IMG/VR virus record: IMGVR_UViG_3300037258_000301
Location: 32,001 to 96,000 of that record
Source: a virus
Reading direction: 5' to 3' (one strand)
DNA: 64,000 bases
A program made the position numbers and the translations under genes. Shown here one piece after another: positions 7,317-31,809 of this stretch (its first letter is position 1; each line of letters starts with the position of its first letter). The notes below the pieces were generated by a model, which was given only the letters and a program-made list of their open reading frames with translations, did no database searches and had not been told where the DNA came from.

Positions 7317-8951
7317 ATGCCGACGGACCGCGACGCGCAACAACTGCTCCATGAGGCCGCGAACGCGCCCAGCCTGGCCGAGGCCCGCCGTTTGGTCGGC
7401 GAGGCCGAGCTGGTGAAGACCGCGCTCGTCCACAAGGCCACTCAGGATCGCGAGGTGGATCTGGCTCAGGCGATCGTGCGCGATCATCTGACGCCGGTCT
7501 CCGTGTTCGAGCATCACACCGCAGCGACCGACTGGCTCGGCGAGATCGATACGACACCGCCGGAGGACATGGATCATCAGATCCTCGCCCAGGCCAGCCT
7601 CTGGTACGGCAACGTGCATCCCGAGGTGAAGTCCTTCCCTTCCGAGTTCGCCGAACAGGCACGGGGGAAGGCCCACAAACTCGCCGGCGCCTACGGACCC
7701 TCGGCGGACGCGGCCGAGGAACTGTTCCTGGGACATGTCGCTGCCTGTCATGCGCGCGAGGTCAAGGCCGGTGTCGTCAAGCTCGCCGTTGAGGCTCCCA
7801 CCGCGCCGGACACTTCCCCGATGCCCTCGGGCTCGGCGTATGAGGGTCTGCCCGAGAACATCACCACTTCTGAGCGTGCCCCCGCCATCCAGGCCCTGGA
7901 GCAGAACAACGGCGCCGGTGGCGCGACCGACGTGGTGCCCATCAACGATCCCGGCCTGGGCGCGGCCGATACCCAGGTGGACCGCACCAACAACGACCTC
8001 GGTGACCAGTCCGTCGCCGATCTCACCAGTCAGGTGGACCGCACCTCGACGGCGAGCCGGCATGTCGCAACGAAGGGAATCCCCACCATGCAGCACGCGC
8101 AGTGCCCGACGTGCGGAGGCCACGGCCGGGTTGCCGTGCGCGTGGCCCCGCAGCCAACCATCGTCGACATCGTTCGGATGGGCGTTTCGGGTCTGGACCA
8201 GGTCGATCAGATCGTCGACCCACACGACAACGGCCCCGACACCAACCCGGCTCCGGGACAGGCCGAGACCTACCCCACCGACGTGGCGTTCCCGTGGACG
8301 ATGAGCCCGGCCAACGTCCAGCAGACCATCAGTGAGAACCAGCAGCAGCTCGCCGAGCGGGAGCAGCGCAAGGGCGCCTCCCTGGAACGCACCGCACGCA
8401 AGGAGGGCAACGCCGCCTACCGCGCGTTCGTCGAGCACAACATGAAGCGGCTGGACCCTGGCAAGAACTTCGACCCGCAGCACCGGCACGTCACGCTGCA
8501 CCAGGCCGCGACCCAGTTCGCGTTGAAGGCGTATGCCGTCGTCAAGCGGGCCGGCACCGACGACTCCGGTTGGATCGGTGACATGGGTGCCGGCGGCTAC
8601 TCCACCGGCGAGCAGGACTGGAACGAGTCCGCCATGTCCGGCGCGAACAACCTTCAGACCCCGGACCCGGTCTATGGCTGGGGCGGTGACAACCCCTCAC
8701 AGCCACTCAAGCCCTACGGCGCTGATGAGGCCGACGACGCCACCAACAACCCGGATGAGTGGGCGCCGGGGCAGCCGACCCAGATGGACATGGGTGGGCG
8801 TGGCCAGGCCACCAATGGTGCCCCGGCGCCCGGCTTCCCGAACGCACCAATGAGCCATGGTGCTTCCGTGGACAGCGATCCGAAGCTTCAGGAGCTGCTG
8901 GCCCTGGCTCGTCGGCGTCGAGCGTTCCTGGAGAGCAAGCAGAACGCCTGA
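7317..8951 (+). CDS. Head-associated/internal virion protein (putative processed polyprotein)
   Basis: GGGAGG RBS; low-complexity P/D/G segments separated by KLA, HVA, RTA, KRA and HGA motifs; CPTCGG. Confidence 0.6.
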   Translation: MPTDRDAQQLLHEAANAPSLAEARRLVGEAELVKTALVHKATQDREVDLAQAIVRDHLTPVSVFEHHTAATDWLGEIDTTPPEDMDHQILAQASLWYGNVHPEVKSFPSEFAEQARGKAHKLAGAYGPSADAAEELFLGHVAACHAREVKAGVVKLAVEAPTAPDTSPMPSGSAYEGLPENITTSERAPAIQALEQNNGAGGATDVVPINDPGLGAADTQVDRTNNDLGDQSVADLTSQVDRTSTASRHVATKGIPTMQHAQCPTCGGHGRVAVRVAPQPTIVDIVRMGVSGLDQVDQIVDPHDNGPDTNPAPGQAETYPTDVAFPWTMSPANVQQTISENQQQLAEREQRKGASLERTARKEGNAAYRAFVEHNMKRLDPGKNFDPQHRHVTLHQAATQFALKAYAVVKRAGTDDSGWIGDMGAGGYSTGEQDWNESAMSGANNLQTPDPVYGWGGDNPSQPLKPYGADEADDATNNPDEWAPGQPTQMDMGGRGQATNGAPAPGFPNAPMSHGASVDSDPKLQELLALARRRRAFLESKQNA

Positions 8952-8979
8952 GCGGCCAGAGCGGGAAGGGGCACACCCC

Positions 8980-9339
8980 ATGGACTTCCGTGCGGCACAT
9001 CGGAAGATCGCTGATGGCCTGTCTTCGGACATGGCGATGGACAGTTCAATGGAGGACGCCAGTCTTCCGGCGACTCGCCAGACCTTCCAGCCTCCTCCGG
9101 CGACGGACGGCTTGGACCCTGCCGCCTCGGGTGGCGCAGCCCCGATGAATGCGGTCGAGCCCTTCGGTAAGCCCGTGGTCAGTGACCCGCTGCTGCCAGG
9201 CCCGGCCGGCCACGAATCCGACCGAGGACCGGTGCCCTACACCGGTCCGGGACCCGATGTTGACGTGACGACACTGCACGGGGCAAGCCTGGGGCTGCGT
9301 GCGGAGACCTACCAACGAAAGACGACGAGGTTCCGATGA
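8980..9339 (+). CDS. Hypothetical head-region protein
   Basis: AAGGGG RBS; KIA and HGA motifs. Confidence 0.6.
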   Translation: MDFRAAHRKIADGLSSDMAMDSSMEDASLPATRQTFQPPPATDGLDPAASGGAAPMNAVEPFGKPVVSDPLLPGPAGHESDRGPVPYTGPGPDVDVTTLHGASLGLRAETYQRKTTRFR

Positions 9340-11222: not shown

Positions 11223-11223
11223 T

Positions 11224-12225: not shown

Positions 12226-12229
12226 CCCG

Positions 12230-12736
12230 ATGGCATTCCTGCGCGAAGGGTTCACGATCACCTTCATCGGCTCGCATGACGCCGATGGGGTGACCTTGGG
12301 CGACAAGGGTCGTCTCCTGGCCTTCGCCAGCGATCATGCCGCCCATGTCCAGTGGTTGACCGGGATCCGCGAAGGTCAAGTGACTCTCACGGACATCGAG
12401 GACATCGACAACGCCTCGCAGAAGTACGCCATGGCGCACCACGATGACCTTGCCGACTCGTTGGAGATGGGATCACTCCAGACGGTAGGGGCCCGTTCGG
12501 TTTACGACATCGCTGGCCCGGAAGGAACCCTGGTGCACATGGCCTCCCAGGGCCAGCTCGGCGGGCTCGCACCCATCGCCGATGGGGTACTGGGTTGGGT
12601 CTGTACCAAGATCCGAACTGAGAGTGCCTTCATGTCGGCACTCGCTGGGCTAGACCCGGATGAGCAAGAAGAGATCATTCAGATGGCTGCGTGCACGGTG
12701 CTTCGAGACACGTTCGGAGGCACCGATGACGATTGA
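12230..12736 (+). CDS. Hypothetical protein
   Basis: GAGG RBS; fits the operon. Confidence 0.65.
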   Translation: MAFLREGFTITFIGSHDADGVTLGDKGRLLAFASDHAAHVQWLTGIREGQVTLTDIEDIDNASQKYAMAHHDDLADSLEMGSLQTVGARSVYDIAGPEGTLVHMASQGQLGGLAPIADGVLGWVCTKIRTESAFMSALAGLDPDEQEEIIQMAACTVLRDTFGGTDDD

Positions 12737-14936
12737 GCAGCATCCACATGAGGCATGGCAAAGCGCTGTATTCGGTTGCGCCCACATCAGTCAGCATCGC
12801 ACCCTTGCGCATCACCACGTTGCCACCCAGCACCTGGCAGATTTGCTTCGACCGATCTCTCGGGATGAGCAGGTGGCGCGCCTACGCACCATGGATGCCG
12901 GATTCGCTCATGACATGCAGGAGCGTCATCGCCCCTTCGATCCAGTAGCGGATGTGGTGCGTGGTGCTCGTACTTACAATCGTTCCCACGGCCTCGACGA
13001 TCCGCATTCGCTGCCCTACCACCAAGTGCGTACGACTTCCAACACCATCGACCGGGTGGGGAGCGCTTATGGTGCACTACCGGACTTTGACAAGCGTGCT
13101 ATCCCACATTTCCATGCTATGGGTGAAGAAGTAGGGCGTCAGTTCGACCACCTCACGCGTCCTCGCCATCAGGGGGGCATGGGCGTCAACGTCGAATCTG
13201 TTGATCACGATCCCTACGCCAACGTGCACGAGATGGTGCATGATCTGCGGAACAACAACCGTCTCCAGGTCATGGGCACTCACGTTACCGGCGGTCACCC
13301 GTACTTCTCCAACGATCAGAATGATCGATTCCGGGCAGTGCATGATGCTTTCGGCCATGCGGCGACCGGGCGTGGCTTTGATGCCAGCGGTGAGGAGGGT
13401 GCCTATCTCGCGCATTCTCGGATGTTCACCCACCATGCGCTACCGGCCATGCAGAGCGAAACGCGTGGCCAAAACGGCTTCGTACACCTCAACAATGACT
13501 TCGGACCGCAGAAGGTCGCGCTGCTACCCGAACATATCCGCAATATTCCCGTCATCGGCGCCACTCCGACCCAGCGTGTTGCGAAGGCTACCGACTGGGA
13601 CGAGTACCGCCGTATCCAGGATGCCCAGGATCGACGCTATGAGCGTCCTGGCATCGTCGGAGGCCAGGAAGAGCACGACCAGTTCTATGGCCGTGGCGAG
13701 CACGCTGGGGCTGGTACCGAGCACCGCCTGACACCGCAGGAGTGGATGCGGCACTCGCACGAGCCCAGCTTCGATGAACTCCCCCCGCAGGAGCACGAAT
13801 GGCATTGGGGCTATGACCTGGGGGCCCAGCACTCCCAGCACATCGACAACGGCGAGTTCGACCATGCCTACTCCGGTTCGGCACACCCCGACCACTTCTT
13901 CTCCGGCTACACCGAAGGGCTGAGTTCGGTTGCCTCAGCCAATCCACTGTCCACTCCGCAGGGCGTTGTCGCCCACGAGGAAGGTCGACAGAGCGTTCGG
14001 GACATCAACGGCACGCCGCTCTGCGACTGGCACGCCGACCGCGCCAAGGAGCTGATGGGGCTCTCCGACCAGATTGGCCGACAGACCGGCCTGATCGACG
14101 AGACGGAGCCCCACACCCACACCGAGACCCCGACCTACCCTGGCCAGTGCGCTGCCTGTGCGAGCGCTCAGGGGAAGAATGAGGGTCGCCCGTGGGAGGC
14201 TCCGCAGGGTGGTTTCCGGCCGTCCCCCATGAGCGAGCACCAGGTTTCGCAGCGCGCGTGGCCGAACAAGCCAAGAAGGACGGGACCCATGCCGCTGTTG
14301 CCGCAGTCGATGTCCTACCGCGTGGCCGTTCGTCGTGGTCAGGGAGTGCTCCCCCAGCGATCGGACGGTCTTCAACGGATAGCTCACCACATCAGCACGG
14401 ATATGCCCGATATAGTAGTTTTGCATAAATTGGCGCATGATTCCGGAGATGGGCAGACAATTCTGCATTGTCCGTTCTGTGGCTCAGGCCAGGTGATTGC
14501 TACTTCCGACGGCGGGGTGAATTGCGAGTTCTGTAAGGCCAGCTTTACGGTGCAAATTCAACCGCAGTACCCGGCTTTCCCACAGAGCATCGATGGTGCG
14601 CCCGTCAACGTGCCCGGCATGGGTCCGGACTTCTCGCCCTACGGTGGCACTCCACCCGGCGCAGAGGCCCCCATGCCGATGGATGGCGAGGAAGATGACA
14701 CCGACGAGGGCGACCCGATGGGTACCAACGCCGACGAGACCGAGCCGCCACCAGAAGATGATGAGGACGACGAGGACTCGAACAACAACGGGCCGATCAC
14801 CAAAAAGACCTATCGGACCATGACCGGAGTCCGACTTGATCGGGAGGCGTACCTCAGGCATCTCGCGCTGGCCTGTTCCCCTGATACCCAGCAGGTGCTA
14901 CGTCGTGTGCGCGCGGTGAACGGAACCGGCGCATGA
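12726..14936 (+). CDS. Polyvalent head protein: FRAVHDxFGH putative metal-binding domain plus C-terminal zinc ribbon
   Basis: NDRFRAVHDAFGH...GEE...ETRGQN; CPFCGS...CEFC; acidic tail. Confidence 0.6.
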   Translation: MTIEQHPHEAWQSAVFGCAHISQHRTLAHHHVATQHLADLLRPISRDEQVARLRTMDAGFAHDMQERHRPFDPVADVVRGARTYNRSHGLDDPHSLPYHQVRTTSNTIDRVGSAYGALPDFDKRAIPHFHAMGEEVGRQFDHLTRPRHQGGMGVNVESVDHDPYANVHEMVHDLRNNNRLQVMGTHVTGGHPYFSNDQNDRFRAVHDAFGHAATGRGFDASGEEGAYLAHSRMFTHHALPAMQSETRGQNGFVHLNNDFGPQKVALLPEHIRNIPVIGATPTQRVAKATDWDEYRRIQDAQDRRYERPGIVGGQEEHDQFYGRGEHAGAGTEHRLTPQEWMRHSHEPSFDELPPQEHEWHWGYDLGAQHSQHIDNGEFDHAYSGSAHPDHFFSGYTEGLSSVASANPLSTPQGVVAHEEGRQSVRDINGTPLCDWHADRAKELMGLSDQIGRQTGLIDETEPHTHTETPTYPGQCAACASAQGKNEGRPWEAPQGGFRPSPMSEHQVSQRAWPNKPRRTGPMPLLPQSMSYRVAVRRGQGVLPQRSDGLQRIAHHISTDMPDIVVLHKLAHDSGDGQTILHCPFCGSGQVIATSDGGVNCEFCKASFTVQIQPQYPAFPQSIDGAPVNVPGMGPDFSPYGGTPPGAEAPMPMDGEEDDTDEGDPMGTNADETEPPPEDDEDDEDSNNNGPITKKTYRTMTGVRLDREAYLRHLALACSPDTQQVLRRVRAVNGTGA

Positions 14937-17188
14937 GCGAACCGTTTAAGGTCAGTGACCGCCGAGGCCGCATCGTCGTTGGCCAATCCGTTGATGATGC
15001 GAAGAAGATGGCCAGCGACGCCACCGATTTGATGCGTCGCACTTTTGGCGACACCAATCCATACACTCAAGCGTTCTCTCGCAACCAGTCCACCGACCAG
15101 GTGGTCGATGAGATGCGACTGAATCGGCGCGTTGCCTCGATGCAGAAACGCGGCATGGGTGTCGGTGGCGTCAACGGTGCGTTCGGAGCCGGGGCCAATG
15201 TCTCCTTTGCGACCGGACGTCCCCGCGATCCGCTGTTCTATTGGCGAGAGAACAATCTCCCGTACGACATCACCAAAGACTCAGAGCTCAAAAAGATCAG
15301 AGCATTTTGTTCACTCCTGTATCTGACCCACCCGATCATCGCGTCCTGTATCGACATCTTCACAAAGTTCCCCTTGCAGGGTATGGAGATTCGGTGCTCG
15401 AAGGATGAGCAGATCGAGGAGTTCTACAACAACCTGTTCTTCGATGAGTTGGGGTACCGCAACTATCTCGTCGATGTGAGCCACCAGCGCTGGCTGCTCG
15501 GCGAGGCATGGCCGTTGGGGTCATTCAACGAGACCTTGGGTGTGTGGGAGGGCGAGGAGCTGCTCAATCCCGATGACGTCGAGGTAGAGCGTTCTGCCCT
15601 GGTCAAGGATCCCCGCTTCCTCATCCGGCTGCCTGAGACCCTGCGGAAGGTGCTTCAGGAGCGTTCGCCGCGCTGGGAGTACAACTCGCTGATCAAGAAC
15701 TATCCAGAGTTGCAGTCCTACGCGGCCGAAGACTCCCTGATGCCGGTCTCGAACATGCTGCTCAAGCAGATCCGGTTCAAGGCAGACACGTTCCACAAGC
15801 GTGGCATTCCGATCCTCATGCGGGCCTTCCGCTCCGTGGTGCAGGAGGAGATGCTCAACGCTGCTCTGGATGCCATTGCCGACCGGCTCTACACCCCGCT
15901 GATCCTGGTACGTCTTGGCGCGTCGGCTTCAGATCTGGGAACTGAAGTTCCGTGGATCCCCACCCAGGGTGATCTGGAGACCTTCGAAGAGGCCATGGAC
16001 GCCGCCTTGGCTGGCGACTTCCGAGTACTGGTCAACCACTTCGCCACCGACATCACCTCGGTGTTCGGACGAGAGAACATGCCCGACCTCTCCGGCGACT
16101 TCGACCGCATCACCGATCGGCTTCTCCAGGTGTTTGGTATCAGTCAAACCATGCTCAACGGTGCAGAATCGGGCGAAACGTACGCGGCTGATGCTCTGAA
16201 TCGCGACATGATGGCCACCCTGCTCACCGATCACCAACTTCAACTTCAGAACTTCTTCGATGATCGCGCTCGGATCGTGGCGGAGGCACAGGAGCACTAC
16301 GACTTCGAGGTCCGGGGCGGTATCCGGTACGTCAAGATGGAGGAAGTCCTCAAGGTCGATGAGGAGACCGGCGAGGAGACCATCGTCGAGCAGCCCAAAC
16401 TGCTGGTCCCCGAACTGTGCTTCGCCACCATGACCCTCTCCGACAAGCAGACCGAACGAGCCTTCCGCGAGGAACTCGTCCAGGGCGGTGTGCCGCTGAC
16501 CATCAAGTCCCGCATCGTCGGCATGGGCATCGACTTCGATCAGATGCTGGAGGAGAAGCAGAACGAGCAGGTTCGACTGGCCGTTGCCGAGCAGGAAACC
16601 CGGCGAGAGACGTTCAAAGCCCTACGGGATCAGCGTCTGCCGATCCCCGTTGATCTCCAGTCCGACTTCCAGCCCGTGGCCAAGCAGCCCGGCCAGCCAC
16701 TCAATCCGGCTCAGGATGCCGCACTGCCACTATTGGGGGCGCAACCCCAGGATCTGCCGGCGTTGGCCCCGACGATGGACGATCAGACGATGGAAGACCA
16801 GCAGGATGCCCCCGGTCCGCAAGACCAGGATGGTCCGAGCCCGATGATGCTGATGCCGATGAACGCGGTACCCCAGGATGGGGATCAACGACCGCCAGAA
16901 TCTGACGAGCAGAGGCAAGGCATGCCTAAGCCGGCACGCAAATACCTCTCACAGAAGATCTCGAAGACGGCCCAGGCCGACTATGACCGGCAGATACGTG
17001 GCCAGATCCATGAGGCCACCCTCAAGCACTATGAGGCACCGGACAACTCCGAGGAAGACCAGGATCGTCCCGAGCATTGGCAGCCGACCGGTAAGTTCGC
17101 CGGGCCGGCACATCTCGGGATGCGTCAGCATGTCCAGATCCCCGAGTCGATGATCTGGCGCGACGAGGATGATGGCGAGACCACGTAA
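14933..17188 (+). CDS. Portal protein
   Basis: Size and position; HPIIASCIDI, W.LGEAW, RGIPILMRA, DLSGDFDRI...FGI pattern typical of portal core (recalled resemblance to cluster C portals). Confidence 0.8.
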   Translation: MSEPFKVSDRRGRIVVGQSVDDAKKMASDATDLMRRTFGDTNPYTQAFSRNQSTDQVVDEMRLNRRVASMQKRGMGVGGVNGAFGAGANVSFATGRPRDPLFYWRENNLPYDITKDSELKKIRAFCSLLYLTHPIIASCIDIFTKFPLQGMEIRCSKDEQIEEFYNNLFFDELGYRNYLVDVSHQRWLLGEAWPLGSFNETLGVWEGEELLNPDDVEVERSALVKDPRFLIRLPETLRKVLQERSPRWEYNSLIKNYPELQSYAAEDSLMPVSNMLLKQIRFKADTFHKRGIPILMRAFRSVVQEEMLNAALDAIADRLYTPLILVRLGASASDLGTEVPWIPTQGDLETFEEAMDAALAGDFRVLVNHFATDITSVFGRENMPDLSGDFDRITDRLLQVFGISQTMLNGAESGETYAADALNRDMMATLLTDHQLQLQNFFDDRARIVAEAQEHYDFEVRGGIRYVKMEEVLKVDEETGEETIVEQPKLLVPELCFATMTLSDKQTERAFREELVQGGVPLTIKSRIVGMGIDFDQMLEEKQNEQVRLAVAEQETRRETFKALRDQRLPIPVDLQSDFQPVAKQPGQPLNPAQDAALPLLGAQPQDLPALAPTMDDQTMEDQQDAPGPQDQDGPSPMMLMPMNAVPQDGDQRPPESDEQRQGMPKPARKYLSQKISKTAQADYDRQIRGQIHEATLKHYEAPDNSEEDQDRPEHWQPTGKFAGPAHLGMRQHVQIPESMIWRDEDDGETT

Positions 17189-17238: not shown

Positions 17239-17571
17239 ATGAGCCTGGGAGCGCGTACGGCCCGACACGACACCGTAGGGAGCCGGCACGAGGCCGTCCA
17301 TCCCGAGGACTATGCCGACTTCGCCGTGCAACAGCACGTGCGCACCCTCGACGGGCTGCTGGGCGTCGTCACGGCGGTCAATGACGGGCCTGTCGAGGGG
17401 TATGAGGATTACACCGTCACTCTGGACAAAGGCATGGGTGTCGGTACCTACACCAGTTCTCAGCTCAGTGCCGTCGGTGAGCCTGGTGAGGTCGGGCATA
17501 CTGCCGTGTCGGATTATCCTGAACTTGGCACGATCCTGACCGATCGGCCCGACCCCGCCAAGGAGAGCTGA
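17239..17571 (+). CDS. Small SH3/Tudor-like beta-barrel protein (putative)
   Basis: F.V.QHVRT.DG..GVVTAV...Y.V.LD pattern flanked by HEA and HTA motifs. Confidence 0.5.
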   Translation: MSLGARTARHDTVGSRHEAVHPEDYADFAVQQHVRTLDGLLGVVTAVNDGPVEGYEDYTVTLDKGMGVGTYTSSQLSAVGEPGEVGHTAVSDYPELGTILTDRPDPAKES

Positions 17572-20700: not shown

Positions 20701-22687
20701 CGTTGCCCTGAAGCAACCGCTGGGCCCTGAATACATCGCCGCCGAGCACAAGGGCACCGATCACATCGCAGCAGCCATTCCGCCCGGCTACGAGGGCGCG
20801 CAGGGGCCGTTCGAGGACGAGTACAGCGAACCACACGTCTACGCGCGTGACATCCACAGCGGCGCCGGCAACTGTGTGTGCGGGGGTGGGCTCGGTGACT
20901 CCATCCACCTCCAGGCCGCGCCCGGCGTCGATGTGCCCGAGCACCAGAGGACCGCTTCCAGCGATCTCGACTACCGCCCACACCGCACTCAGGATGCCCG
21001 CTCAGACGCGCCCATCTTCGGCAAGGGGGTCGACGACTGGGGCCTGACCCTGGTTGACTGCCCGCAATGCGGTGGACAGTCCGGTTGCGGCCACTGCGGG
21101 GGGACCGGGCAAGTGATCTCCACCGGCGACACCACGGCCAACCCGACCCCCGACCAGAACCCGGTGGCCGGCGACACCATCCGCGAGGATGGCATCTCCG
21201 ACACCAGCGCACTGCATCATGAGGCGATGAATGACTACGCCGATCCGATCAGGGGCAAAGTAGGTCCGAAAGTAAATCGGGTCAAGGGTTCGCAGGTACA
21301 ACCGGGGCACGTCATTCCCATGCGGCCCGATCCGTACAACGTAGGCGATTCGTATGCATGGCAGGAAGTTGCTCATAAGGAGCGTTGGCCAGAGGGCAAT
21401 AACTACAAGATCACGAACTCCTCTGGCTCGCACTACACCGTGGTGAGTCCTCACGAGTACGTGCAAGTTCATTCCGATACAGGGCCTGAGCACACGGCGG
21501 CCAAGACGCAATCGGGCCCTTCGGTTGCTGGAGTTGCTCTCAAGGCCGCTGACACGGGCCGCATCCTGATGCTCCAACGCGGCCTGGAGGACGAGAAGGA
21601 CCCGGCACGCGGTCTATGGGAGCATCCCGGTGGCCACATCGAGCCCGGCGACAAGACCACCCTCCATGCTGGACTCAGGGAGTGGGAAGAAGAGGTTGGT
21701 CAGCCCTTCCCCGAGGGTGGCGTTGTTACTCACGCCTGGACGAGTCCGAACGGTGTCTATCAGGGCCATGTGGTGGTGATTCCCCGCGAGCGCGACCTGG
21801 TCATGCATGACGGTCGGGTAGTGCCGAACCCGGATGACCCCAAGGGGGACAAGGCGGAACAAGCGGCCTGGTGGCATCCTGATCATGCCCGGAAGAACCC
21901 AGCCCTGCGGCCCGAGGTCAAGGCCACTCCCTGGAACAAGATCAAGGAGGCTGGAGTCGACGCCGGCCTGAAGGTCGCCGCATTGCTCTCACGTGAAGGC
22001 GCCGCGTGGGACAGCCTGTACTCATTGGAGGAGAGCCAGCCGGTCACACCGCCGCCGCACTCGAACAGCGAGAACCCGGCCAGTACCGGCTTCCTCACCA
22101 ACCAGGATCCCGCTTCCTGGTCCGAGGTCACCAAGAAGCCGCATCACTTGCTGCCGGCCGACTCGCTGGACTCACCGCTGGCCACACTGCACTCCGTACC
22201 CGAGGGCGCACTCCCGTTCACTGACGGAGACGCCGAGGACTCCACGTCGGGCACCGAGGACCCCTACAACAGCCAGACCGATACCGAATCGCTCGACGGG
22301 GACACCGACACCATCCCGGATGCGGAGATGGAAGGCTCTCCCATGGAGAATCTGGGCGGGACAGCCAAGCGTTCGGTCGCGGAGATCGTCGAGCAGTTCC
22401 AGCGCACGGCGGGGGCGGTAGCACTTCAGTCCGGTAGCGAAGGAGGTAGTGACGTGGGATTCTCCGACGGTGAGATCGCGGCCAAGGCCAAAGAGCGGCT
22501 GGCCGGCATGAGCAAGACCGCACTCAAGAACTTCAGCTTCGCCGAGCAGCAGGAACTGATCGGAGAGGGGCAGGGTTCCCGGGCCAGGAATTTTGGGGAC
22601 CTATCCCTCTCCGGAACGCACTATGAGGCGCTCCAACAGGCATTGGACACTGCCGGAGTGAACGATGACGACATTCTGATCCTGTGA
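17738..22687 (+). CDS. 1649-aa polyvalent protein: zinc fingers, GNAT, ParB/Srx, SWIM, ART-like and Nudix domains
   Basis: QYRSQGVA (GNAT motif A), PPLVL...VADGHHR (ParB/Srx), CGC...PCSHV (SWIM), WYHG...GL...LTSS...A..YG (ART/Tpt1-like), GGHIEPGD...LREWEEEVG (Nudix box). Confidence 0.8.
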   Translation: MWHPSDRLFAHYAAEQPQESEPVADVSDLPHTCSYCGSQEFEQPEDTGRGLRAICSACGGAMLRTEDGQWSPAGLNATHNHPRPDGDPASGGVGGAANVGVDPDRMNDASARHGSLDVIAARAYQDDPYVMAKPGDKVPCPTCDGHGSYEEDEPKSDGQVAREGIPDDAPEGDFYNTVTKPCEDCDERGYHVRQTDREELDTARAEGNTQYVKDFTEKHEDEPHPDRVKMPSCPPECRFPTARRVHTPKLSALNDEVPWCAHLYHGNCTYPGDKLPNGTVLGIPQDRGPCPWKHNAFQQAACPISAPGPMAVMQVSAALHEAMPSRKHPAPEDLSYDTYHPKPGEQYFDEAEESNPGWSHHLLRAHRSSVDVGGSQPHMVGSVYYSHQPDGPVPMVKVHKMLVGHQYRSQGVASAMQDELHRQYPGHFIDHGDRTADGHGWASQYEAPSDHIMSQVTGMMKIVAFSWDEIGDRHPHIYGDSEIHGEAADGADGPGIGDAANYLAHERPDDPDAEHHSVYDMDFHEEHVDPRHIDYSPSGRDDYRVSHAMEGYREHPDTMPPLVLVKRHHVYQVADGHHRAEAADAVGAHVRAYVAHSPYPDEPFRDGEKGPFHRAEPIDEALHHEAAWADVRNKAKRIRREGGVTIVVASTDGVAGEVRGDTHVYETAITWVPGTTRTAYWTCGCMYGAYAHGPRWDDRPCSHVLAMRFEAQSRSAHGREIEVDQKRPEWLKPQTSVMVQYERPSEDHPQGRDLTRRAVPPGNMRSTWDSRSRTRRSSLERTAAIAQAQAMFAEDQDPAEVIEQLVATGATRLEAQVVVLAARGRMAIVHTGKRCPECGAELDSTAGQCDECGAVLADRSITHRASWGDDEQRCPHCGGYIGPSAFKVGKCPHCGHALAHKTGAADHGVWYHGAPPERAEQVRREGLPKSYGGEYDLRLTSSPQQAKIYGDMPGHGANATVFEFHIPHNHPALHPVYEHNLFDERAHGVALKQPLGPEYIAAEHKGTDHIAAAIPPGYEGAQGPFEDEYSEPHVYARDIHSGAGNCVCGGGLGDSIHLQAAPGVDVPEHQRTASSDLDYRPHRTQDARSDAPIFGKGVDDWGLTLVDCPQCGGQSGCGHCGGTGQVISTGDTTANPTPDQNPVAGDTIREDGISDTSALHHEAMNDYADPIRGKVGPKVNRVKGSQVQPGHVIPMRPDPYNVGDSYAWQEVAHKERWPEGNNYKITNSSGSHYTVVSPHEYVQVHSDTGPEHTAAKTQSGPSVAGVALKAADTGRILMLQRGLEDEKDPARGLWEHPGGHIEPGDKTTLHAGLREWEEEVGQPFPEGGVVTHAWTSPNGVYQGHVVVIPRERDLVMHDGRVVPNPDDPKGDKAEQAAWWHPDHARKNPALRPEVKATPWNKIKEAGVDAGLKVAALLSREGAAWDSLYSLEESQPVTPPPHSNSENPASTGFLTNQDPASWSEVTKKPHHLLPADSLDSPLATLHSVPEGALPFTDGDAEDSTSGTEDPYNSQTDTESLDGDTDTIPDAEMEGSPMENLGGTAKRSVAEIVEQFQRTAGAVALQSGSEGGSDVGFSDGEIAAKAKERLAGMSKTALKNFSFAEQQELIGEGQGSRARNFGDLSLSGTHYEALQQALDTAGVNDDDILIL

Positions 22688-25372: not shown

Positions 25373-28300
25373 GTGCTCAAGTACGCGACGCTGGAGATCC
25401 TGGACGCCCGTATGGGGCATCCCAATGTACGACTACGCACCGCGCACCGGGCCGTGTTCAACTACATCCCCCGCGAGGGCTACCTCTACGTTCGCTCCCG
25501 AGCCATCAGCAGCAGGACCAACGACAACTACGACCACTTCTCGGCTGAGGAGATCAAGGGGAACGGCAGCACTACGGGCTACAAGACCTTCATCGGCAAG
25601 CCCGTCTTCGTCAATCATCACAATGAGGATCATCGCCGGATGCGTGGCGTCATTATTGACGCGGTGTTGCATAAGGACCGCAATCCCGATGGCTCACCGG
25701 ATACCTGGTCCGAAGTGTTGATGGAAGTCGACGCGGTGCGCTTCCCGAAGTTGGCCCAAGCAATTTTGGCTGGCCACATCGATCGCACCTCGATGGGTGT
25801 CGATGTCGAGCGGAGCACCTGTTCAGTGTGTGCCAATGTCGCCCAAACCCCCAGCGACTACTGCCGACACATCCCCGCGATGAAGGGGAAGCGTTACCAG
25901 TCCGTCGATTACAAGACGGGCGCGAAGAAGACCAATCTCGTCTATGAGAAGTGCGCCGGCCTGAAGTTCTTCGAGAACAGCCTTTTGGTCGAGGAACCAG
26001 CCGACCCATCTGCATATTTGCTTGATCATCCAGTATTGGGGCCCGGATTAGAGCACATGCTTCCACGTACGGCCAGCTCTAATGGACGAGATGGTCATGT
26101 CGGACACTCCGAAGCGGTCTCCAATTTCTTTCATGGTCAACTGACCACGCCTGGTTCGACCACGCCCAATCGCCACCCGAGGCAACAACTCCCGCTTGAT
26201 GAGTCGAACATCCTCTTCAGTCAGAGTCGCCCAGGGGTTGCGGGAGCCGGGCAGGCTTCTTCCGCGAATCACCATGTCTCGCGAGTTGTCGGCGTTGGAC
26301 CCCAGCAGCCAGTGGTGGCGGTTATGGCAGAGGGGGACATCGCAGGTATGCCGTACCACGTCGCCAGGCGGAATGGGACCGACCAACGTTTCGTAGCCCC
26401 ACCGATGGGAGCGCACCGAGGATCGCTTGGCGTCGTCCAGGGACAGACGGCCGTACCCGTTGCCGAAAGTCCCGCCAGTCCACAGATGGCAAGCATCAGG
26501 ACCACCGCTGGTGTCGATGCTGGCCAGGTAGCGTTCCAGGACGGTTTTGGTTCGAACGAAAGTGCCATGTCGGGACCTGCTGACCATAGCCTTCATATTA
26601 GCAGAACTGCTATGCACCGCGCCGACGCACTGATCATGCGCAAGACCCGTGCGGCCGACCTCTCCGACGAGGATCTAGTGGACACCGACGAAGAGCTGAA
26701 GCAGAGGGCCCGCATGCTCGGCAAGCCAGGTCAGGTTTCGAAGATCCACAAGACCGTGCAGCAGGAACGCAAACGTCGGGTCGGAGCGGTGGACCCTCGC
26801 ATCTTCGATGTGCCGGCCGACGCCTCTCCCGGATTGCCTCGTTACACCTCGGCCGGGGCATGCCCGGCTTGTCGAGGTACCGACACTATCCGGGTCGAAT
26901 CCGTTCGTGAATGCGGCGAATGTGGACACCTCTGGATGGTCGCGATGGTCGATCCGGACCAGCTGCTCGTCCAGGCCGCTCCACGTCACCAGGACCCGGC
27001 TCAGCACCCCTGGTTCCAGGCCAATCCCGTGTCCCATCAGCATGTCGTCGACATGTGGAACAAGGCCACGCCGGATGAGAAGAACTCTGGTCGTCGCTGG
27101 TACCCGGATGCTCACTTGGTGGCTCAGTCTCTGGGTAAGTTGCACCCTGACCACCCGCTCAACGGTGGTACCAAGACCGAGAAGCATGCCTACGTCGACA
27201 ACCCCGACGAGACTGACCAGAAGCACACTCACATGGCTGCCGGTGTGTTGGCCACCTACTCACCGCAGAGTCCGTGGACAACCAACATGCACAACGCGGC
27301 CCGCGCCCTGCACGAAGGCAAGGGCATCGGCGGCAAGGGCGGCGGCGTGATGGCCTCCCAACAGCAGTCCGACTCCGCCAGTCGGATCATGTCCGGCGAG
27401 AAGTACACCGACGTACTCAAGGGCCCGAAAGTCAGCGACTTCGCTCATTTGATCGAGCACGGCGGCGATGAGCATGCTGACGACCCTCATGTGGTCGTCG
27501 ATCGACATGCCCTCTCGGTGGCCACCGGGAAGCGCATGACCGAAGAGGACTACAACAGCTTCCCCAAGTCCAACCGGCATTACTACGGCCACGTCGTGCA
27601 GGCATACAAGGACGCGGCTGACCAGATCGGCCGCAAGGGCGGCGAACCGATCGCTGGACACCAGGTGCAGGCTGCCACCTGGTTGGCTCAGCAGCGGCAC
27701 AACCAGGCGTCCGAACGGGCTATCCAAGGTCAGGACAGTAATGTCGACCGGCTGAACAAGGGGCGTGAGCGCTCTCGGCAGCGGGCCGAGGAAGGGTGGT
27801 CCCAGTTCAAGCAGGAGCATGGCCTGAGTATTGGCGGTGAACCCGGCACCGGTTACACGGCTCGCAAGTTGGCCTACGGCGAACAGAAGGCTCCTGCTGA
27901 TGTGGATACTCTGCGGGACGAATCCTGCCCGATCTGTGGTGAGTCCACGGCTGCCTATGACGGTCGCAACTGCGGTGTCTGTGGTTGGGAGGCCCCGCCG
28001 AAGATGTTCGCCGATCCTGATCTGGAGATGGCCAAGCAAGTCGACCTGCGCAAGGACGTGCTTGACCCATCCGGACAGGACGGCACTGATGTCGGCGACT
28101 TCGCCGACGAGTCCGCTGGTGGCCTGGAGGTCGGTGAGGATCAGCCCGACCTGGTCTGTGACAACTGCGGTACTACGTTCGATGCGGGCCAGCCGCAGAC
28201 CACCAACACCGAGGATCCCGAGGCGGGCGATCGCGGTGACGGTCCGGCCGAGGGGGACGTCTGCCCCGAGTGTGGCGTGGGTGAATTGGTACCTCCGGAC

Positions 28301-28624
28301 GTCCTGGAGGGTGATCAGAATGAAGAAGGGCCTGAGGGATCCCTGGAGGTCGGTCCCACGGATGATGTGGATTCTCAGGGTGGGAATCCCAACGCCGTCG
28401 ATCCGAGCGGATTTGAGCAGAGTTCCGACGTGCAGGACGAAGAAGAGCCCGAGGTCGATGAGGATCAGGACTCCGACAATCCATTCGCCAAGGGAGATGC
28501 CTCTTCCGACGATGAGGACGAAACAGGCGAGGACGAAGACGAGGACGACGTTCCGCCGAAGAAGGCCAAACCCCAAACCAAGCACTCGCTGCGCGATCGC
28601 GTCTTCGGACCTCGGAATAGGTGA
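25373..28624 (+). CDS. Prohead (capsid maturation) protease polyprotein with extra domains
   Basis: N.N.D.F, GKPVFVNH.N, RG.IIDA, TSMG...CSVC...C.H, FFENS.LVE.PADP protease core (about aa 1-225), then antisense-HNH-derived segment, glycosylase-like domain, zinc ribbons, acidic tail. Confidence 0.8.
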   Translation: MLKYATLEILDARMGHPNVRLRTAHRAVFNYIPREGYLYVRSRAISSRTNDNYDHFSAEEIKGNGSTTGYKTFIGKPVFVNHHNEDHRRMRGVIIDAVLHKDRNPDGSPDTWSEVLMEVDAVRFPKLAQAILAGHIDRTSMGVDVERSTCSVCANVAQTPSDYCRHIPAMKGKRYQSVDYKTGAKKTNLVYEKCAGLKFFENSLLVEEPADPSAYLLDHPVLGPGLEHMLPRTASSNGRDGHVGHSEAVSNFFHGQLTTPGSTTPNRHPRQQLPLDESNILFSQSRPGVAGAGQASSANHHVSRVVGVGPQQPVVAVMAEGDIAGMPYHVARRNGTDQRFVAPPMGAHRGSLGVVQGQTAVPVAESPASPQMASIRTTAGVDAGQVAFQDGFGSNESAMSGPADHSLHISRTAMHRADALIMRKTRAADLSDEDLVDTDEELKQRARMLGKPGQVSKIHKTVQQERKRRVGAVDPRIFDVPADASPGLPRYTSAGACPACRGTDTIRVESVRECGECGHLWMVAMVDPDQLLVQAAPRHQDPAQHPWFQANPVSHQHVVDMWNKATPDEKNSGRRWYPDAHLVAQSLGKLHPDHPLNGGTKTEKHAYVDNPDETDQKHTHMAAGVLATYSPQSPWTTNMHNAARALHEGKGIGGKGGGVMASQQQSDSASRIMSGEKYTDVLKGPKVSDFAHLIEHGGDEHADDPHVVVDRHALSVATGKRMTEEDYNSFPKSNRHYYGHVVQAYKDAADQIGRKGGEPIAGHQVQAATWLAQQRHNQASERAIQGQDSNVDRLNKGRERSRQRAEEGWSQFKQEHGLSIGGEPGTGYTARKLAYGEQKAPADVDTLRDESCPICGESTAAYDGRNCGVCGWEAPPKMFADPDLEMAKQVDLRKDVLDPSGQDGTDVGDFADESAGGLEVGEDQPDLVCDNCGTTFDAGQPQTTNTEDPEAGDRGDGPAEGDVCPECGVGELVPPDVLEGDQNEEGPEGSLEVGPTDDVDSQGGNPNAVDPSGFEQSSDVQDEEEPEVDEDQDSDNPFAKGDASSDDEDETGEDEDEDDVPPKKAKPQTKHSLRDRVFGPRNR
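26048..26587 (-). mobile_element. HNH homing endonuclease nested antisense inside the protease ORF
   Basis: C.LWTG...GYG, SHR.GYE...GPIP...VRHTCD.PLC.N..H...G..ADN..DM, then C-terminal HTH ending GRTWKHVL; extended -10 TGCTAATAT 7 nt before ATG 26587 (ORF can extend to 26617). Confidence 0.9.
28589..28624 (+). promoter_or_regulatory. Putative late promoter motif (CTGC-N22-GAA-N3-GTGA)
   Basis: Matches the recurring motif, upstream of the scaffold gene. Confidence 0.5.
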
Positions 28625-28658: not shown

Positions 28659-29576
28659 ATGGCCATGCGTCCCACGCTTCAGGCGCTTGCTGAACAGCAG
28701 CAGGAACTGAATGCTCTCCGCAACACTGTCGGTGCTCAGGCTGCCCAGCTCACTCGGCAGGCCAGCCAACTCGCCGCACAGGGCACCACCATCGAGCGTC
28801 TCGGGCGTGGCCTGTTCTCGCTGGCCTCCATGGCGGGCGGTGACGTGCAGTCCAAGATTGCCTCGGCCATGCTCAAGCGGGCCGACGTGCAGAACCCGGC
28901 CCAGCCGGTACCTGAACCGCCGGCCGGACCGCCCACCGAGTCCACCCAGGAAGCGGAAACTCCGGAAGCGTTCGCCAACGTTCAGGATCCCGGTCTCGTT
29001 CCTGGATCCACCAATGACGTGGCAGCCGATGCCACCACCACCTCCTACACGCCGGGTATGGATATCGCCAGCCAGCCCTTCCACCAGCTCATCGACGTCA
29101 CCCAGCCAGTCGACGGAACACAGAACCCGCGCCCGCTTCAGGAGACCAAGACGCTCACCGATGTGCGCGTGGGGGATCCGATGAACCCGCAGACCGCGTT
29201 CCCGCTCGGAGGCGAGTTCGCCAATGCGCAACGTACCTCCAGCAAAACCGCAGCGGCCGATGCGTCCCGACGCACCATGGCCTCTCTGCGACTGGCTCGG
29301 CTGCGTCTTCAGGCCGGTACCGCCGAGGGCGAGTCGGACTTCGTGGTCGCCGCGATGATCGAAAAGGATGCTCAGGTGTCCACGGCCGCGATCGAGCAGG
29401 AAATCTCCACGCTGGAGAACGTGAAGAAGGCGGCATCCAGTCGTGCAGCCAACGCTCGACTGGTACCGAAGTCGGCCAACCGGCAGCCCCGCCCCTCCCT
29501 ACAGGGAGGCACTTCACACACCGCCAGTGCGGCTCCCGTGAGCACGGAGACTGAAGACGCCGACTTGTTCGATTAA
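28659..29576 (+). CDS. Putative scaffolding protein
   Basis: Between protease and capsid genes; coiled coils; KIA, KRA, KTA and HTA motifs; ends DADLFD. Confidence 0.6.
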   Translation: MAMRPTLQALAEQQQELNALRNTVGAQAAQLTRQASQLAAQGTTIERLGRGLFSLASMAGGDVQSKIASAMLKRADVQNPAQPVPEPPAGPPTESTQEAETPEAFANVQDPGLVPGSTNDVAADATTTSYTPGMDIASQPFHQLIDVTQPVDGTQNPRPLQETKTLTDVRVGDPMNPQTAFPLGGEFANAQRTSSKTAAADASRRTMASLRLARLRLQAGTAEGESDFVVAAMIEKDAQVSTAAIEQEISTLENVKKAASSRAANARLVPKSANRQPRPSLQGGTSHTASAAPVSTETEDADLFD

Positions 29577-29586
29577 AGGTCACGGG

Positions 29587-30009: not shown

Positions 30010-30023
30010 CGGTTCCTCGAACG

Positions 30024-30066
30024 GAAACCCCCAACGCTGTGGACCTCGGCGTTGGGGGTTTCTTTT
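30024..30066 (+). terminator. Intrinsic terminator
   Basis: 14-bp stem gaaacccccaacgc/gcgttgggggtttc followed by tttt. Confidence 0.85.
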
Positions 30067-30176
30067 GCCCTCACTGTCGTGTCTTGACCTCTACCGGTGG
30101 GAACGAGCAGAGGAGGGAGTCCTTCCCGGAAGCCCCTTCTGGATTGAATAACTCCAATGAAGGGATGGGAGGGAAA

Positions 30177-30698
30177 ATGATCCGGACACCGCTGAATCTC
30201 AGCTACATCAAGCGTGAGTTGCGCCCGCTGTACGGCTGGTCTCAGGCGACGCCGAAGGCTGCTTTCGTCGATCCTTCGTGGACGTCATCCGTTGACATCT
30301 ATCCCGGCATGGTCATGCAGAAGATGTTGGGCGACAACGTCACTCTGCTCAATGCCTCGGGTACCCCGTATGGTCTCGCATCGTTCCTGATGGCCCCCAA
30401 GCTGGGCATCGACGAGATCACCGAGACAGGCGTCAACGCCTGCGCGGTATGGGTTATGGGTCCCGACGCCGAGTTCGAGATCCTCGCGCCGTCATTCGAC
30501 ACCACGGCGACCTGGACCGACCCCGGCAACGGCACCACCGCCTTGGTCTACGCGTACACCACGGGGGCCTATCAAGGCGTGTTGTGCCCCTCCACTGGTT
30601 CGCAGGGCTCCGTCAGTGCACTTCCGGTCGCCCGGCTGTTGCAGGTGGCCTCGACATCCAAGATCCGTATCGGCGGCCTTCAGGCCCGGACTGCGTGA
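30177..30698 (+). CDS. Capsid decoration/cement protein (putative)
   Basis: Immediately upstream of the MCP; GGGAGG RBS; recalled resemblance to cluster C decoration proteins. Confidence 0.6.
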   Translation: MIRTPLNLSYIKRELRPLYGWSQATPKAAFVDPSWTSSVDIYPGMVMQKMLGDNVTLLNASGTPYGLASFLMAPKLGIDEITETGVNACAVWVMGPDAEFEILAPSFDTTATWTDPGNGTTALVYAYTTGAYQGVLCPSTGSQGSVSALPVARLLQVASTSKIRIGGLQARTA

Positions 30699-30708
30699 GG
30701 GAGTGACG

Positions 30709-31809
30709 ATGACGAACACTTTGGTTCGCACCAGCGCCCTCGGGGGCCGGATCGCGAAGAAGTCTGACGACTACGTGTCGCAGATCCTGGCCCGTCGTGA
30801 GAAGAGCGGTGCGCTCTCCCACGAAGCCAAGGTCGACAAGCTGGCACTGATCCTCTCCGACGAGAGCAACGGCATCAAGCGTCTCGGCGTCGGCATGATC
30901 GGCCCGATTCAGCTCAAGCTGCGGTATCAGGGCATCACCCGCAACGTGCTCATCGAGGACCCGGTCACCCCGGGCACCCCCGTCGAGTACGACGTGTGGG
31001 ACGACCTTGGCCAGGCATACATCATGTCCGGGCACGAGGGCGAAGTCCGCATCACCCCGTTCGAAGGCAAGCGCGTTCCGATCCGGTTCTTCCGTATCGC
31101 CTCGCGCCCCGCGATCCGCAAGGAAGACCTGTTCTACCTGCGGATCAACGCTGTCGAGCAGGCGCAGGACGAGACCAAGCAGGCCATCCTCAAGCAGGAA
31201 GACTCGCGGCTGCTCGTACTGCTCCAGTCCGCCGCGAATGCCTACGCCACGCGGCCGGACCACGTCATCACCCCGAACCACAACGTCACGGAGGCCAGCG
31301 GATACTTCACCCCCGCCGGCCTGTACGAGGCAGTTCGTCAGACCGACATGCACGAGTTGCAGTCGGCCCGCATTCTGGTGAACCCCTACGACTTCCGTGA
31401 CTTCTACCAGTGGGACATCAACACCACTGGCTGGGCCTTCAAGGACAGGGTGGTGGCCGGAGAGACCATCACCACGTTCGGTGAGTTCCAGTTCCAGCGG
31501 TCGATCATGGTCCCCGCCGGCACGATGTACCTCACCCCGGAGCCGAACTTCCTCGGCGTCTTCCCGGTTCTCTACTCGCTCGATGTCGAGGAGAACCACA
31601 ACGTGGAGGCGTTCTGGAAGGGCTGGGTGTTCGACGAGATGGTCAACATGACCATTCTCAACCCGCGTGGCATCGCTACCGTCACGAAGGCGTCGGAAGC
31701 GCTCTACTCCGACCCGACGTCGCTCGGTGGTGCCGCAACCGGCCTCACCTCGCCGCCGGCCACGGAGTCCGCGCTCAACCCGCCAGGCGCCTACACCACC
31801 TGGCCGTGA
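30709..31809 (+). CDS. Major capsid protein
   Basis: Strong codon bias, followed by a terminator; PIQLKLRYQGITRNVL.ED, KQED.RL, GWVFDE...ILNPRG (HK97-fold MCP ending). Confidence 0.9.
   Translation: MTNTLVRTSALGGRIAKKSDDYVSQILARREKSGALSHEAKVDKLALILSDESNGIKRLGVGMIGPIQLKLRYQGITRNVLIEDPVTPGTPVEYDVWDDLGQAYIMSGHEGEVRITPFEGKRVPIRFFRIASRPAIRKEDLFYLRINAVEQAQDETKQAILKQEDSRLLVLLQSAANAYATRPDHVITPNHNVTEASGYFTPAGLYEAVRQTDMHELQSARILVNPYDFRDFYQWDINTTGWAFKDRVVAGETITTFGEFQFQRSIMVPAGTMYLTPEPNFLGVFPVLYSLDVEENHNVEAFWKGWVFDEMVNMTILNPRGIATVTKASEALYSDPTSLGGAATGLTSPPATESALNPPGAYTTWP

Follow-up and report, generated by a model that had tools for sequence, protein, structure and literature searches.

One phage head protease acting at a short motif on many substrates is a known arrangement: in addition to itself, a single enzyme of this type cleaves numerous head and ejection proteins, at a motif three residues long (PMC10052503). 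Herpesvirus assemblins (MEROPS S21) cut after Ala at an R-site and an M-site (YLQA-T and VQA-S in pseudorabies virus, PMC4498786), and in the concept of polyvalent proteins an internal zincin-like metallopeptidase has been proposed to carry out the processing (Iyer et al. 2017, PMC5512222). The locus described here is the head module of the virus of IMG/VR record IMGVR_UViG_3300037258_000301, and was analysed in a stretch of 64,000 bp (the window) that comprises bases 32001-96000 of a single contig of 151,624 bp with a G+C content of 62%. Its head proteins are rich in a tripeptide composed of a basic residue, Thr and Ala ([RKH]TA), which recurs next to a putative prohead protease domain and in predicted linkers of large mosaic proteins. 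An earlier note on this DNA had read the more permissive motif [K/R/H]-x-[A/G/S] as the processing code of a prohead protease that would cut polyproteins encoded by about 20 kb of genes. To our knowledge, head-protease codes are known for only T4, phiKZ, 201phi2-1 and SPN3US, and all of these enzymes cut after Glu.

Judged from its predicted proteins, the source is a large actinophage myovirus of soil, kin of Rhodococcus phage E3 and of the cluster C mycobacteriophages. Its portal, major capsid protein (MCP), cement protein and protease domain share 33-60% identity with their counterparts in the phages used for comparison, namely Rhodococcus phage E3, Mycobacterium phages Bxz1 and Phrappuccino, and Gordonia phage Pupper, and Myrna matches the portal and the protease domain. 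When the head block was compared by megablast with the GenBank phages, the sole match was 367 bp of the MCP gene, to E3; a search of IMG/VR with the protease protein returned one distant 10-kb locus, which was left unused. The gene order portal (from 14933), protease (25373), scaffold-like protein (28659), cement protein (30144) and MCP (30703) is common to E3, Bxz1, Pupper and Phrappuccino, the protease lying between portal and MCP and adjoining the scaffold gene.

A tripeptide over-represented in head-module proteins

A codon-usage model called 199 genes, from which 17 head-block proteins (7,540 amino acids, aa), 19 tail proteins (7,982 aa) and 159 other proteins were compared, with expected counts derived from per-protein shuffles. 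The examples quoted in the earlier note were all found in their places: LHEA↓M 320, HHEA↓AW 624, RTA↓S 1071, HTA↓AK 1252 and KTA↓LK 1593 in the open reading frame (ORF) 17738..22687; KLA↓HDSG in 12726..14936; KLA↓YGE 832 in the protease ORF; RVA↓S 66 and KTA↓Q 678 in the portal; KRA↓D 73 and KTA↓A 196 in 28659..29576; RIA↓K 16 in the MCP; and RTA at the C-terminus of the cement protein (arrows mark the predicted cut). The motif in its permissive form is at chance in the head proteins, with 249 copies observed and 231.3 expected (z 1.4), the corresponding counts being 127 and 150 in the tail proteins and 781 and 748 in the others; at a density of 3.3 per 100 aa, any boundary lies near a copy of it. 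The head-over-tail enrichment that it was expected to display belongs to narrower forms. The pattern [KRH].A occurs 125 times against 90.1 expected in the head (1.39x, z 4.0), compared with 47 against 54 in the tail (0.87x) and 370 against 328 elsewhere, and [KRH]TA occurs 21 times against 5.8 in the head (3.65x, z 6.5), is depleted in the tail (1 against 4.6) and reaches 31 against 22 elsewhere; along the 151-kb genome, the excess of [KRH]TA does not extend beyond the head block. When all tripeptides were scanned without bias in the window's head proteins, RTA was the most over-represented (12 against 2.6), its p value of 2e-5 being borderline by itself after correction for 8000 tests. The 28 sites are encoded by 24 different 9-mers, and this diversity of codons places the signal at the protein level and rules out a DNA-level motif.

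Replication in other phages matters here, since the narrow motif was chosen after inspection of the window. The annotated head and tail proteins of the four comparison phages were therefore scanned, and pooled with those of the window phage. RTA again ranked first of 8000 tripeptides in the head proteins of Bxz1 (12 against 2.2, p 4e-6; tail 3 against 2.1); in the head proteins of E3 it occurs 6 times against 1.3, and [RK]TA occurs 9 times in those of Pupper (2.8 expected) and 9 times in those of Phrappuccino (2.6 expected). For the pool of five phages, [RKH]TA was counted 66 times against 19.2 in head proteins (p 6e-17) and 26 times against 24.0 in tail proteins (1.08x). The permissive motif stays at 1.07x in the pooled head proteins, and falls to 0.99x when Thr and Glu are excluded at its middle position.

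The pooled head proteins also provide a profile of the motif, its positions being numbered P3, P2 and P1 towards the predicted cut. At P3, Arg (2.9x), His (2.6x) and Lys (1.8x) are over-represented; at P2 Thr stands out (3.4x), the other raised residues being raised in tails too; and among [RKH]-[TE]-X tripeptides Ala alone is clearly enriched at P1 in head over tail (2.51x against 1.10x). In 51 of 80 sites (64%), Ala is followed by Gly, Ala or Ser. Among the 400 gapped pairs in head proteins, only C.C exceeds K.A and R.A (z 5.6 and 5.4), placing them second and third, which does not hold in tails. Pairs ending in Glu are flat (L.E 1.06x, I.E 1.12x, A.E 0.97x, S.E 0.94x, G.E 0.89x), showing no over-representation of a Glu code of the T4, phiKZ or SPN3US type in these proteins. 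Variants with an aliphatic P2, [RKH][VIL]A, are somewhat enriched in tails as well (1.46x), as can be attributed to helix composition. HEA was dropped as a general variant: its excess in the window (7 against 1.75) shrinks to 1.13x across 119 homologues of the largest head-region protein, and it seems to stand in for RTA only at particular sites.

Two proteins encoded just downstream of the MCP and counted as tail, Pupper gp101 (L004) and Bxz1 gp103 (L003), contain conserved RTA sites. Both have the sequence TPWSQ.DWRTADDYGA, and Pupper gp101 also has RRSSLERTA↓A, akin to GASLERTA and RSSLERTA in the window. The two proteins may be head-associated substrates, in which case the contrast between head and tail given above is conservative.

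Position of the motif in the protease fusion protein and other head proteins

Two homologue sets were aligned, consisting, for the protease protein, of the best 120 of 667 homologues (596-1538 aa) and, for the 1649-aa protein encoded upstream of it, of the best 120 of 180 (909-2849 aa). Many of these sequences come from contigs of about 150 kb in soil metagenomes and from Streptomyces assemblies, and they differ greatly in the domains that they contain (GNAT, ParB, PF12120, HNH, Hint/intein, extra zinc ribbons). This extreme mosaicism of the two large site-rich proteins fits the suggestion, put forward earlier, that such sites provide plug-in slots for new domains. The tripeptide is enriched in both sets, [RKH]TA 3.35x in the 120 protease-protein homologues and RTA and KTA 3.65x and 4.4x in 119 homologues of the giant protein. 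Close relatives swap letters at the same position (HTA to RTA, KRA to RTA, HEA to RTA), and the VASF-HEA-K of Pupper corresponds to VASL-RTA-D of E3. The variation tolerated at single sites thus resembles the loose motif of the earlier note, only at exposed places whose position is conserved. A split of the columns of one full-length alignment (A1) by occupancy into core and variable failed to separate the sites (3.8x and 4.5x, respectively); little weight attaches to this outcome, as MAFFT aligned the variable parts loosely. Hint/intein domains (PF05203, PF14890, PF14528) were seen in some homologues of both proteins (P0005, P0183), and in P0005 an intein interrupts the protease domain itself.

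The protease fusion protein (25373..28624, plus strand, 1083 aa) is composed of a protease domain (residues ~25-232), a disordered insert (233-413), a helical region, DUF7178 (615-777), a zinc ribbon and an acidic/basic tail. Its first ~215 residues are covered by a match to phrog_18299, a head maturation protease (E 9.5e-26), and tblastn finds the "prohead core protein protease" genes of Erwinia jumbo phages. In an AlphaFold2 model computed from a 96-sequence alignment, the predicted local distance difference test score (pLDDT) of the protease domain is mostly above 85. Aligned with VIA-align, residues 31-207 match T4 gp21 (5jbl_A, Z 10.0, root-mean-square deviation (rmsd) 2.9, 126 aa), the best structural match among proteases, followed by the proteases of varicella-zoster virus (1vzv_A, Z 9.6, rmsd 2.5, 114 aa), human cytomegalovirus (8j3s, Z 7.4) as well as Kaposi's sarcoma-associated herpesvirus (1fl1, Z 6.2). 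On this model, the N-terminal domain has the T4 gp21/herpesvirus assemblin fold. A Foldseek search with the model of the whole 1083-aa protein gave no match below E 0.001, and a sequence search of the protease domain against the PDB chains gave none. H82 and S140 (the latter in RTSMG), a putative catalytic pair, are invariant in the 96 homologues, with a spacing that resembles that of T4 H85/S140. Invariant too are C150, C153, C164 and H166 (window 25820-25870), a pattern suggesting that the assemblin fold has gained a zinc site of the Cys3His type; H166, a possible third catalytic residue, may accordingly bind zinc instead. The DUF7178 region (27029-27700, residues ~553-776) is similar in the model to HhH-GPD DNA glycosylases and to DUF2419, a queuine-salvage enzyme (3n0u Z 10.5, 1pu6 Z 8.2, 7ugk Z 7.9); as the fold is all-helical, these matches are a lead only.

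Segments with pLDDT below 50 comprise residues 1-21, 233-413, 472-486, 830-847, 897-922 and 982-1083. The three [RKH]TA copies RTA24, RTA234 and RTA413 are each 0-3 residues away from an order/disorder boundary, and KLA834 lies inside a low-pLDDT segment; by our own estimate, three of three falling within 3 residues of ten boundaries in 1083 residues has a probability of roughly 3e-4. Most other [KRH].A matches are deep inside folds (e.g., KLA126, KCA193, KHA604, RHA711). The idea that the motifs coincide with domain boundaries holds for several copies at edges of order and disorder, and fails for the many located within folded domains.

RTA↓H (residues 22-24, 25436..25444, plus strand) marks the start of the folded protease domain, after the low-confidence residues 1-21; its alignment columns contain Lys 58 and Arg 51 times, then Thr 35, Ser 18, Asn 13 and Ala 13, then Ala 101 and Gly 16, followed by an invariant His-Arg. 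RTA↓S (residues 232-234, 26066..26074, plus strand) directly follows the protease domain, at a pLDDT boundary between 232 and 233 and after a conserved domain end (...EPADPTAYFLG....GPGLEHL). Its columns hold Lys 42 and Arg 37, Thr 65, Ala 95, and Ser 63 and Ala 21 times in 120 sequences, and the alignment is gappy thereafter. In the 30 aa after the domain, [RK]TA is found in 59 of 119 homologues (50%) and [RKH].A in 98 (82%), compared with 4.7% and 41% of background windows, and tandem copies such as ARTA↓SKTA↓S are common. By analogy with the herpesvirus R-site, RTA↓S is a candidate auto-release site. Further downstream, KLA↓YGE (residues 832-834, 27866..27874, plus strand) lies in the low-pLDDT segment 830-847, its columns in the 96 homologues being Lys 27, Arg 25 and His 19, then Leu 34, Val 17 and Thr 13, then Ala 80 and Gly 12, then Tyr 86. 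The protease-protein homologues were not found to terminate at a motif; they end in acidic-then-basic tails.

The region after the protease domain differs between homologues in a way that involves the motif directly. Insert-free homologues (P0003, P0004, P0007) have a single post-protease site (AKTA↓VHRAD, AKIA↓V, SKVA↓V), and in the window protein and P0002 an insert of ~178 residues occupies exactly this site and is bracketed by two copies of the motif, the first being RTA↓S and the second RTA↓M in the window (residues 411-413, 26603..26611, plus strand, where the low-pLDDT stretch 233-413 ends) or KIA↓A in P0002. The insert is predicted to be disordered (pLDDT about 30), and its G+C content at third codon positions in the sense frame is 0.58, against 0.73-0.76 in the flanks. 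Opposite to it, on the minus strand, runs an ORF of 189 aa (26048-26617) with a full-length, sub-threshold match to HNH_3 (E 1.3e-4) and a sigma70_r4-like helix-turn-helix.

The mosaic head-region protein of 1649 aa (17738..22687, plus strand) contains 7 [RKH]TA, with 1.2 expected, and combines zinc ribbons (DZR, 835-895), a SWIM-like fold, a weak GNAT match, a NUDIX domain (1264-1388, E 2e-13) and a conserved C-terminal segment. Its residues 450-1649 were modelled with AlphaFold from 50 sequences (mean pLDDT 55), and three sites, HEA626, HTA1254 and REG1421, are found 0-4 residues from the edge of a fold. HEA↓A (residues 624-626, 19607..19615, plus strand) is at the N-terminal edge of the SWIM-like fold, a low-pLDDT stretch ending at 624 and the fold beginning at 625, and has the homologue consensus FH-x-T-A-x-WADVR. 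The NUDIX fold, predicted to span 1258-1419, has a site on each side: HTA↓AK (residues 1252-1254, 21491..21499, plus strand) precedes it by ~4 aa and, in 119 homologues, is represented about nine residues upstream of the NUDIX domain by His 62 or Arg 8, any residue, Gly 36 or Ala 33, Ala 64 or Gly 14, and Lys; REG↓A (residues 1419-1421, 21992..22000, plus strand) is at its C-terminal edge, ~30 residues after the Pfam NUDIX match and at an order/disorder boundary (1419/1420), and aligns with K-T-A↓A in homologues (Lys 54, Arg 14; Thr 52, Glu 13, Lys 12, Ala 10; Ala 71, Gly 10; Ala 41, Ser 22, Asp 15). Inside the NUDIX domain, [RKH]TA occurs once across 118 homologues. About 55 aa from the C-terminus, KTA↓LK (residues 1593-1595, 22514..22522, plus strand; homologue consensus L.KTALK.F.F.EQQ) is conserved as RTA↓GRHYSPSEQA in Bxz1 gp94, RTA↓GRNYSFAEQQ in E3 gp76 and KTA↓LKDFTF in the relative L006, and is also kept in Pupper gp93 and Phrappuccino gp52. 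Further copies between 18695 and 21226 (plus strand) are HEA 320, RTA 434, RTA 677, RTA 781, RTA 1071 and HEA 1161, of which RTA 1071 and HEA 1161 are in long low-pLDDT linkers, the latter aligning with RTA in L006, and RTA 781 is ~5 aa from a boundary.

A stand-alone module of 110 aa (17239..17571, plus strand), carrying RTA 6 and HTA 87, forms the N-terminus of the giant protein in four homologues (P0148, P0160, P0182, P0175), and the fusion junction right after it reads RFA↓AK, YTA↓ARTA↓AY, HLA↓SR or FNA↓VR.

In the scaffold-like protein (28659..29576, plus strand, 305 aa), KRA↓D (73-75) and KTA↓A (196-198) are accompanied by HTA↓S (287-289), 16 aa from the C-terminus, and KSA↓N, ~20 aa upstream of it. 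The last two are candidate analogues of the herpesvirus M-site. Near the C-terminus the pattern LVP-[RKQ]-[TSA]-A↓[SAGN] is conserved with sites 16-34 aa from the end, and letters are swapped as described above (L006 has RTA↓S in place of HTA↓S, and L007 RTA↓D in place of KRA↓D). In P0062, P0030, P0094 and P0031, as well as in Bxz1, E3 and Pupper, the protease protein carries this protein as a C-terminal fusion. The fused proteins of these three phages have KTA↓GG near their C-terminus, and Bxz1 gp95 has RTA↓G 18 aa from its end.

The portal (14933..17188, plus strand, 751 aa; phrog_2833, E 2e-136, residues 53-580) has KTA↓Q (678-680) and HEA↓T (693-695) in a C-terminal extension beyond the conserved core, and the Bxz1 portal has RTA↓D at 696; RVA↓S 66 is inside the core match and is an unlikely site. 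An unknown protein of 544 aa (7317..8951, plus strand), assigned to the head by gene position only, contains 3 [RKH]TA against 0.58 expected (HEA 12, KTA 34, HTA 67, RTA 358 being its copies), and has no significant Pfam or PHROG match (one weak Pfam match, E 0.05). The cement, or minor capsid, protein (30144..30698, plus strand; Phage_cement_3, E 3e-38) ends in ...GGLQARTA, a C-terminus shared by L006 and not by L007, Bxz1, E3, Pupper or Phrappuccino. The MCP (30703..31809, plus strand, 368 aa) is 56-60% identical to those of Bxz1, E3, Pupper and Phrappuccino from residue 3-15 on. None of these four MCPs contains [RKH]TA or HEA, the HEA of the window MCP aligning with ARE, ATE, AQE or AAE. 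With the N-terminal arm being conserved and, in those four phages, free of the motif, RIA↓K, which had been listed as a site, and HEA↓K are probably not cleavage sites. Only the 1649-aa protein, the 1083-aa protein and perhaps the product of 7317..8951 look like substrates with several sites, and the proposal of some 20 kb of polyproteins goes beyond this.

A predicted processing code and its alternatives

As the best reading of these data, we consider it somewhat more probable than not that a basic residue followed by a second residue, usually Thr, and Ala is the substrate code of the phage's own prohead protease, which would cut after the Ala. As an interpretation, the processing code of the earlier note is retained to the extent that over-representation is specific to the head, sites keep conserved inter-domain positions and the protease that they adjoin is of the assemblin/gp21 fold; freedom of the middle residue and an ending in Gly or Ser are given up. 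The predicted consensus has Arg, Lys or His at P3, a preferred Thr at P2, Ala (rarely Gly) at P1 and then Ser, Gly or Ala, with Glu, Ser, Ala, Val, Leu or Ile at P2 tolerated at particular sites. The enzyme would be the N-terminal domain of the 1083-aa protein. Inside the procapsid it would release itself at the R-site-like position after its own domain; the 178-residue insert peptide would be excised via the pair of sites that flank it; the C-terminal tail of the scaffold-like protein would be clipped at an M-site-like position; and the 1649-aa protein and other head-module proteins would be cut at exposed inter-domain linkers, so that units such as the NUDIX domain would become proteins in their own right, internal or ejected. 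If a short linker motif is all that is required, the host protein could take up domains between sites, and even a selfish gene on the opposite strand, and still not be destroyed.

The predicted system has likenesses to several described ones. With the assemblins it shares the fold, the fusion of the protease upstream of linker or scaffold sequence, a site directly after the protease and another close to the scaffold's C-terminus, and Ala followed by a small residue; the fusion of scaffold and protease found in relatives matches the herpesvirus UL26 arrangement. It differs in having a basic residue at P3, which is hydrophobic in herpesviruses, Thr at P2, many sites on cargo-like proteins, and a bacterial virus as its bearer, and in that cleavage is predicted. 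The analogy with T4 gp21 and phiKZ gp175 drawn in the earlier note extends to the fold of the enzyme and not to its code: T4 gp21, phiKZ gp175 and SPN3US gp245 cut after Glu, the codes among them being A-X-E, S/A/G-X-E and L/I-X-E, and here, unlike for the proteases of T4 and the giant phages, there is no Pfam S77 match and the MCP appears to have no conserved site. Like polyvalent proteins, the 1649-aa and 1083-aa proteins are large, mosaic and encoded among the late head genes, they have NUDIX, GNAT-like, zinc-ribbon, ParB, HNH and intein variants, and delivery in the virion is expected; in contrast to polyvalent proteins, no zincin-like domain was found here by Pfam, and the processing signal appears tied to the prohead protease.

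Several points weigh against cleavage at these sites by this enzyme. Specificity for Ala would be new for phage enzymes of this fold, the T4 code being L/I-x-E; the head protease of SPN3US cuts after A-X-E (PMC10052503). Residues 1-234 match no Pfam protease model at E values up to 1, including Peptidase_S77, S78 and S21. About half of each AlphaFold model is of low confidence, so that placement in linkers is by itself weak evidence, and the pooled counts of 66 against 19.2 contain orthologous, non-independent sites. Some copies are not where a cleavage site should be: RTA677 is in a beta-strand inside the SWIM fold and is, in the model, probably inaccessible, some homologues have sites inside DUF7178, and an RTA↓GE in the small conserved protein Bxz1 gp88/E3 gp71/Pupper gp87 was counted as in-fold. 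The MCP and most cement proteins are without a conserved site, and a motif looked for at the protease-scaffold fusion junction in relatives was found in none. Virion proteomic or N-terminal data on this phage or its relatives were not found in the literature, most subscription papers being outside the search.

The simplest alternative, chance matches of a loose tripeptide in proteins rich in Ala, Arg and Thr that a genome of 62% G+C encodes, derives its force from the counts of the permissive motif (249 against 231, and 0.99x without Thr or Glu at P2), from the 1.46x of [RKH][VIL]A in tails and from the choice of the narrow motif after inspection of the data. As an account of the whole signal it is very improbable, RTA ranking first of 8000 tripeptides in two independent head sets, the pooled p value being 6e-17 with tails at 1.08x, and the sites occupying the same aligned positions in ~120 homologues with diverse codons; it is refuted for the narrow motif, and it stands for matches ending in Gly or Ser and for most of those without Thr. 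That the motif is real and selected without being scissile, serving instead as a docking or capsid-targeting signal or as a structural linker or helix-capping element, is unlikely; it would account for several conserved copies in folds or at their first turn (RTA677 in its beta-strand, RTA411-413 before helix 412-422, KEA1403 in the C-terminal region of NUDIX), the C-terminal KTALK.F.F.EQQ block, which looks like part of a small helical domain, and the natural ...RTA ends of two proteins, which could equally be a binding epitope. A structural element is not, however, expected to be absent from tail and replication proteins, nor to occur in tandem after a protease, duplicated round an insert or at ORF fusion junctions, and the small residue after Ala and the R-site- and M-site-like placement match a protease of this fold.

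Cutting by another enzyme, either one of the host or a second phage protease at work in the cytoplasm before assembly or following ejection, would accommodate the difference between the motif and the code, specific for Glu, of those phage enzymes of this fold that have been characterised, and would agree with the proposal that polyvalent proteins are processed by zincin-like peptidase domains of their own (Iyer et al., PMC5512222). We regard this explanation as quite improbable: Pfam scans of the head-block proteins, large parts of which are without a detectable family, detected neither a zincin nor any other peptidase domain, the site with the strongest conservation is the one immediately behind the prohead protease domain, and the enrichment tracks the proteins encoded round the protease in five phages, the hosts being Streptomyces-associated, Mycobacterium, Rhodococcus and Gordonia.

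A processing code read by the phage's own protease would have a bearing beyond this genome. We tentatively propose that the clade comprising cluster C, E3-like, Pupper-like and many ~150-kb Streptomyces-associated phages possesses a protease of gp21/assemblin fold with herpesvirus-like specificity, which would act as a kind of protein-level splicing: essential head genes would receive cargo domains between duplicated sites, and even a homing-endonuclease gene read through on the other strand, to be excised after translation. Such splicing, if it takes place, would explain the extreme mosaicism of these head proteins. The specificity, the clade, and the link to insertion of domains and selfish genes would be new; for cluster C, E3 and other actinophages, no report of head-protein processing or of a cleavage motif was found in the literature, to the extent that this search covered it. 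If the prediction is right, mature virion proteins and ejected enzymes could be predicted from sequence in hundreds of actinophages, the proteases of phages and herpesviruses would be linked by substrate preference in addition to fold, and a concrete mechanism would be at hand for the gain and loss of domains in polyvalent head proteins.

Further features of the locus

Several unknown ORFs (7317-14936) are located upstream of the portal, and an fn3 protein and small coiled-coil ORFs lie between the genes of the 1649-aa and the 1083-aa protein. The ORF 12873-14936, upstream of the portal, shares 54% identity across ~200 residues with Bxz1 gp104, whose position in Bxz1 is downstream of the MCP, indicating that this gene has moved within the structural module. 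The MCP has a C-terminal extension of 38 residues (residues 331-368, 31693-31806) ending in ...NPPGAYTTWP, which is present in the window and L006 and missing from L007, Bxz1, E3, Pupper and Phrappuccino. Proteins closely related to the protease protein (P0055, P0072, P0080, P0093) are encoded on ~150-kb contigs of Streptomyces assemblies, one of which (Streptomyces sp. RLB1-9) is labelled a plasmid, and this group of phages may persist as extrachromosomal elements.

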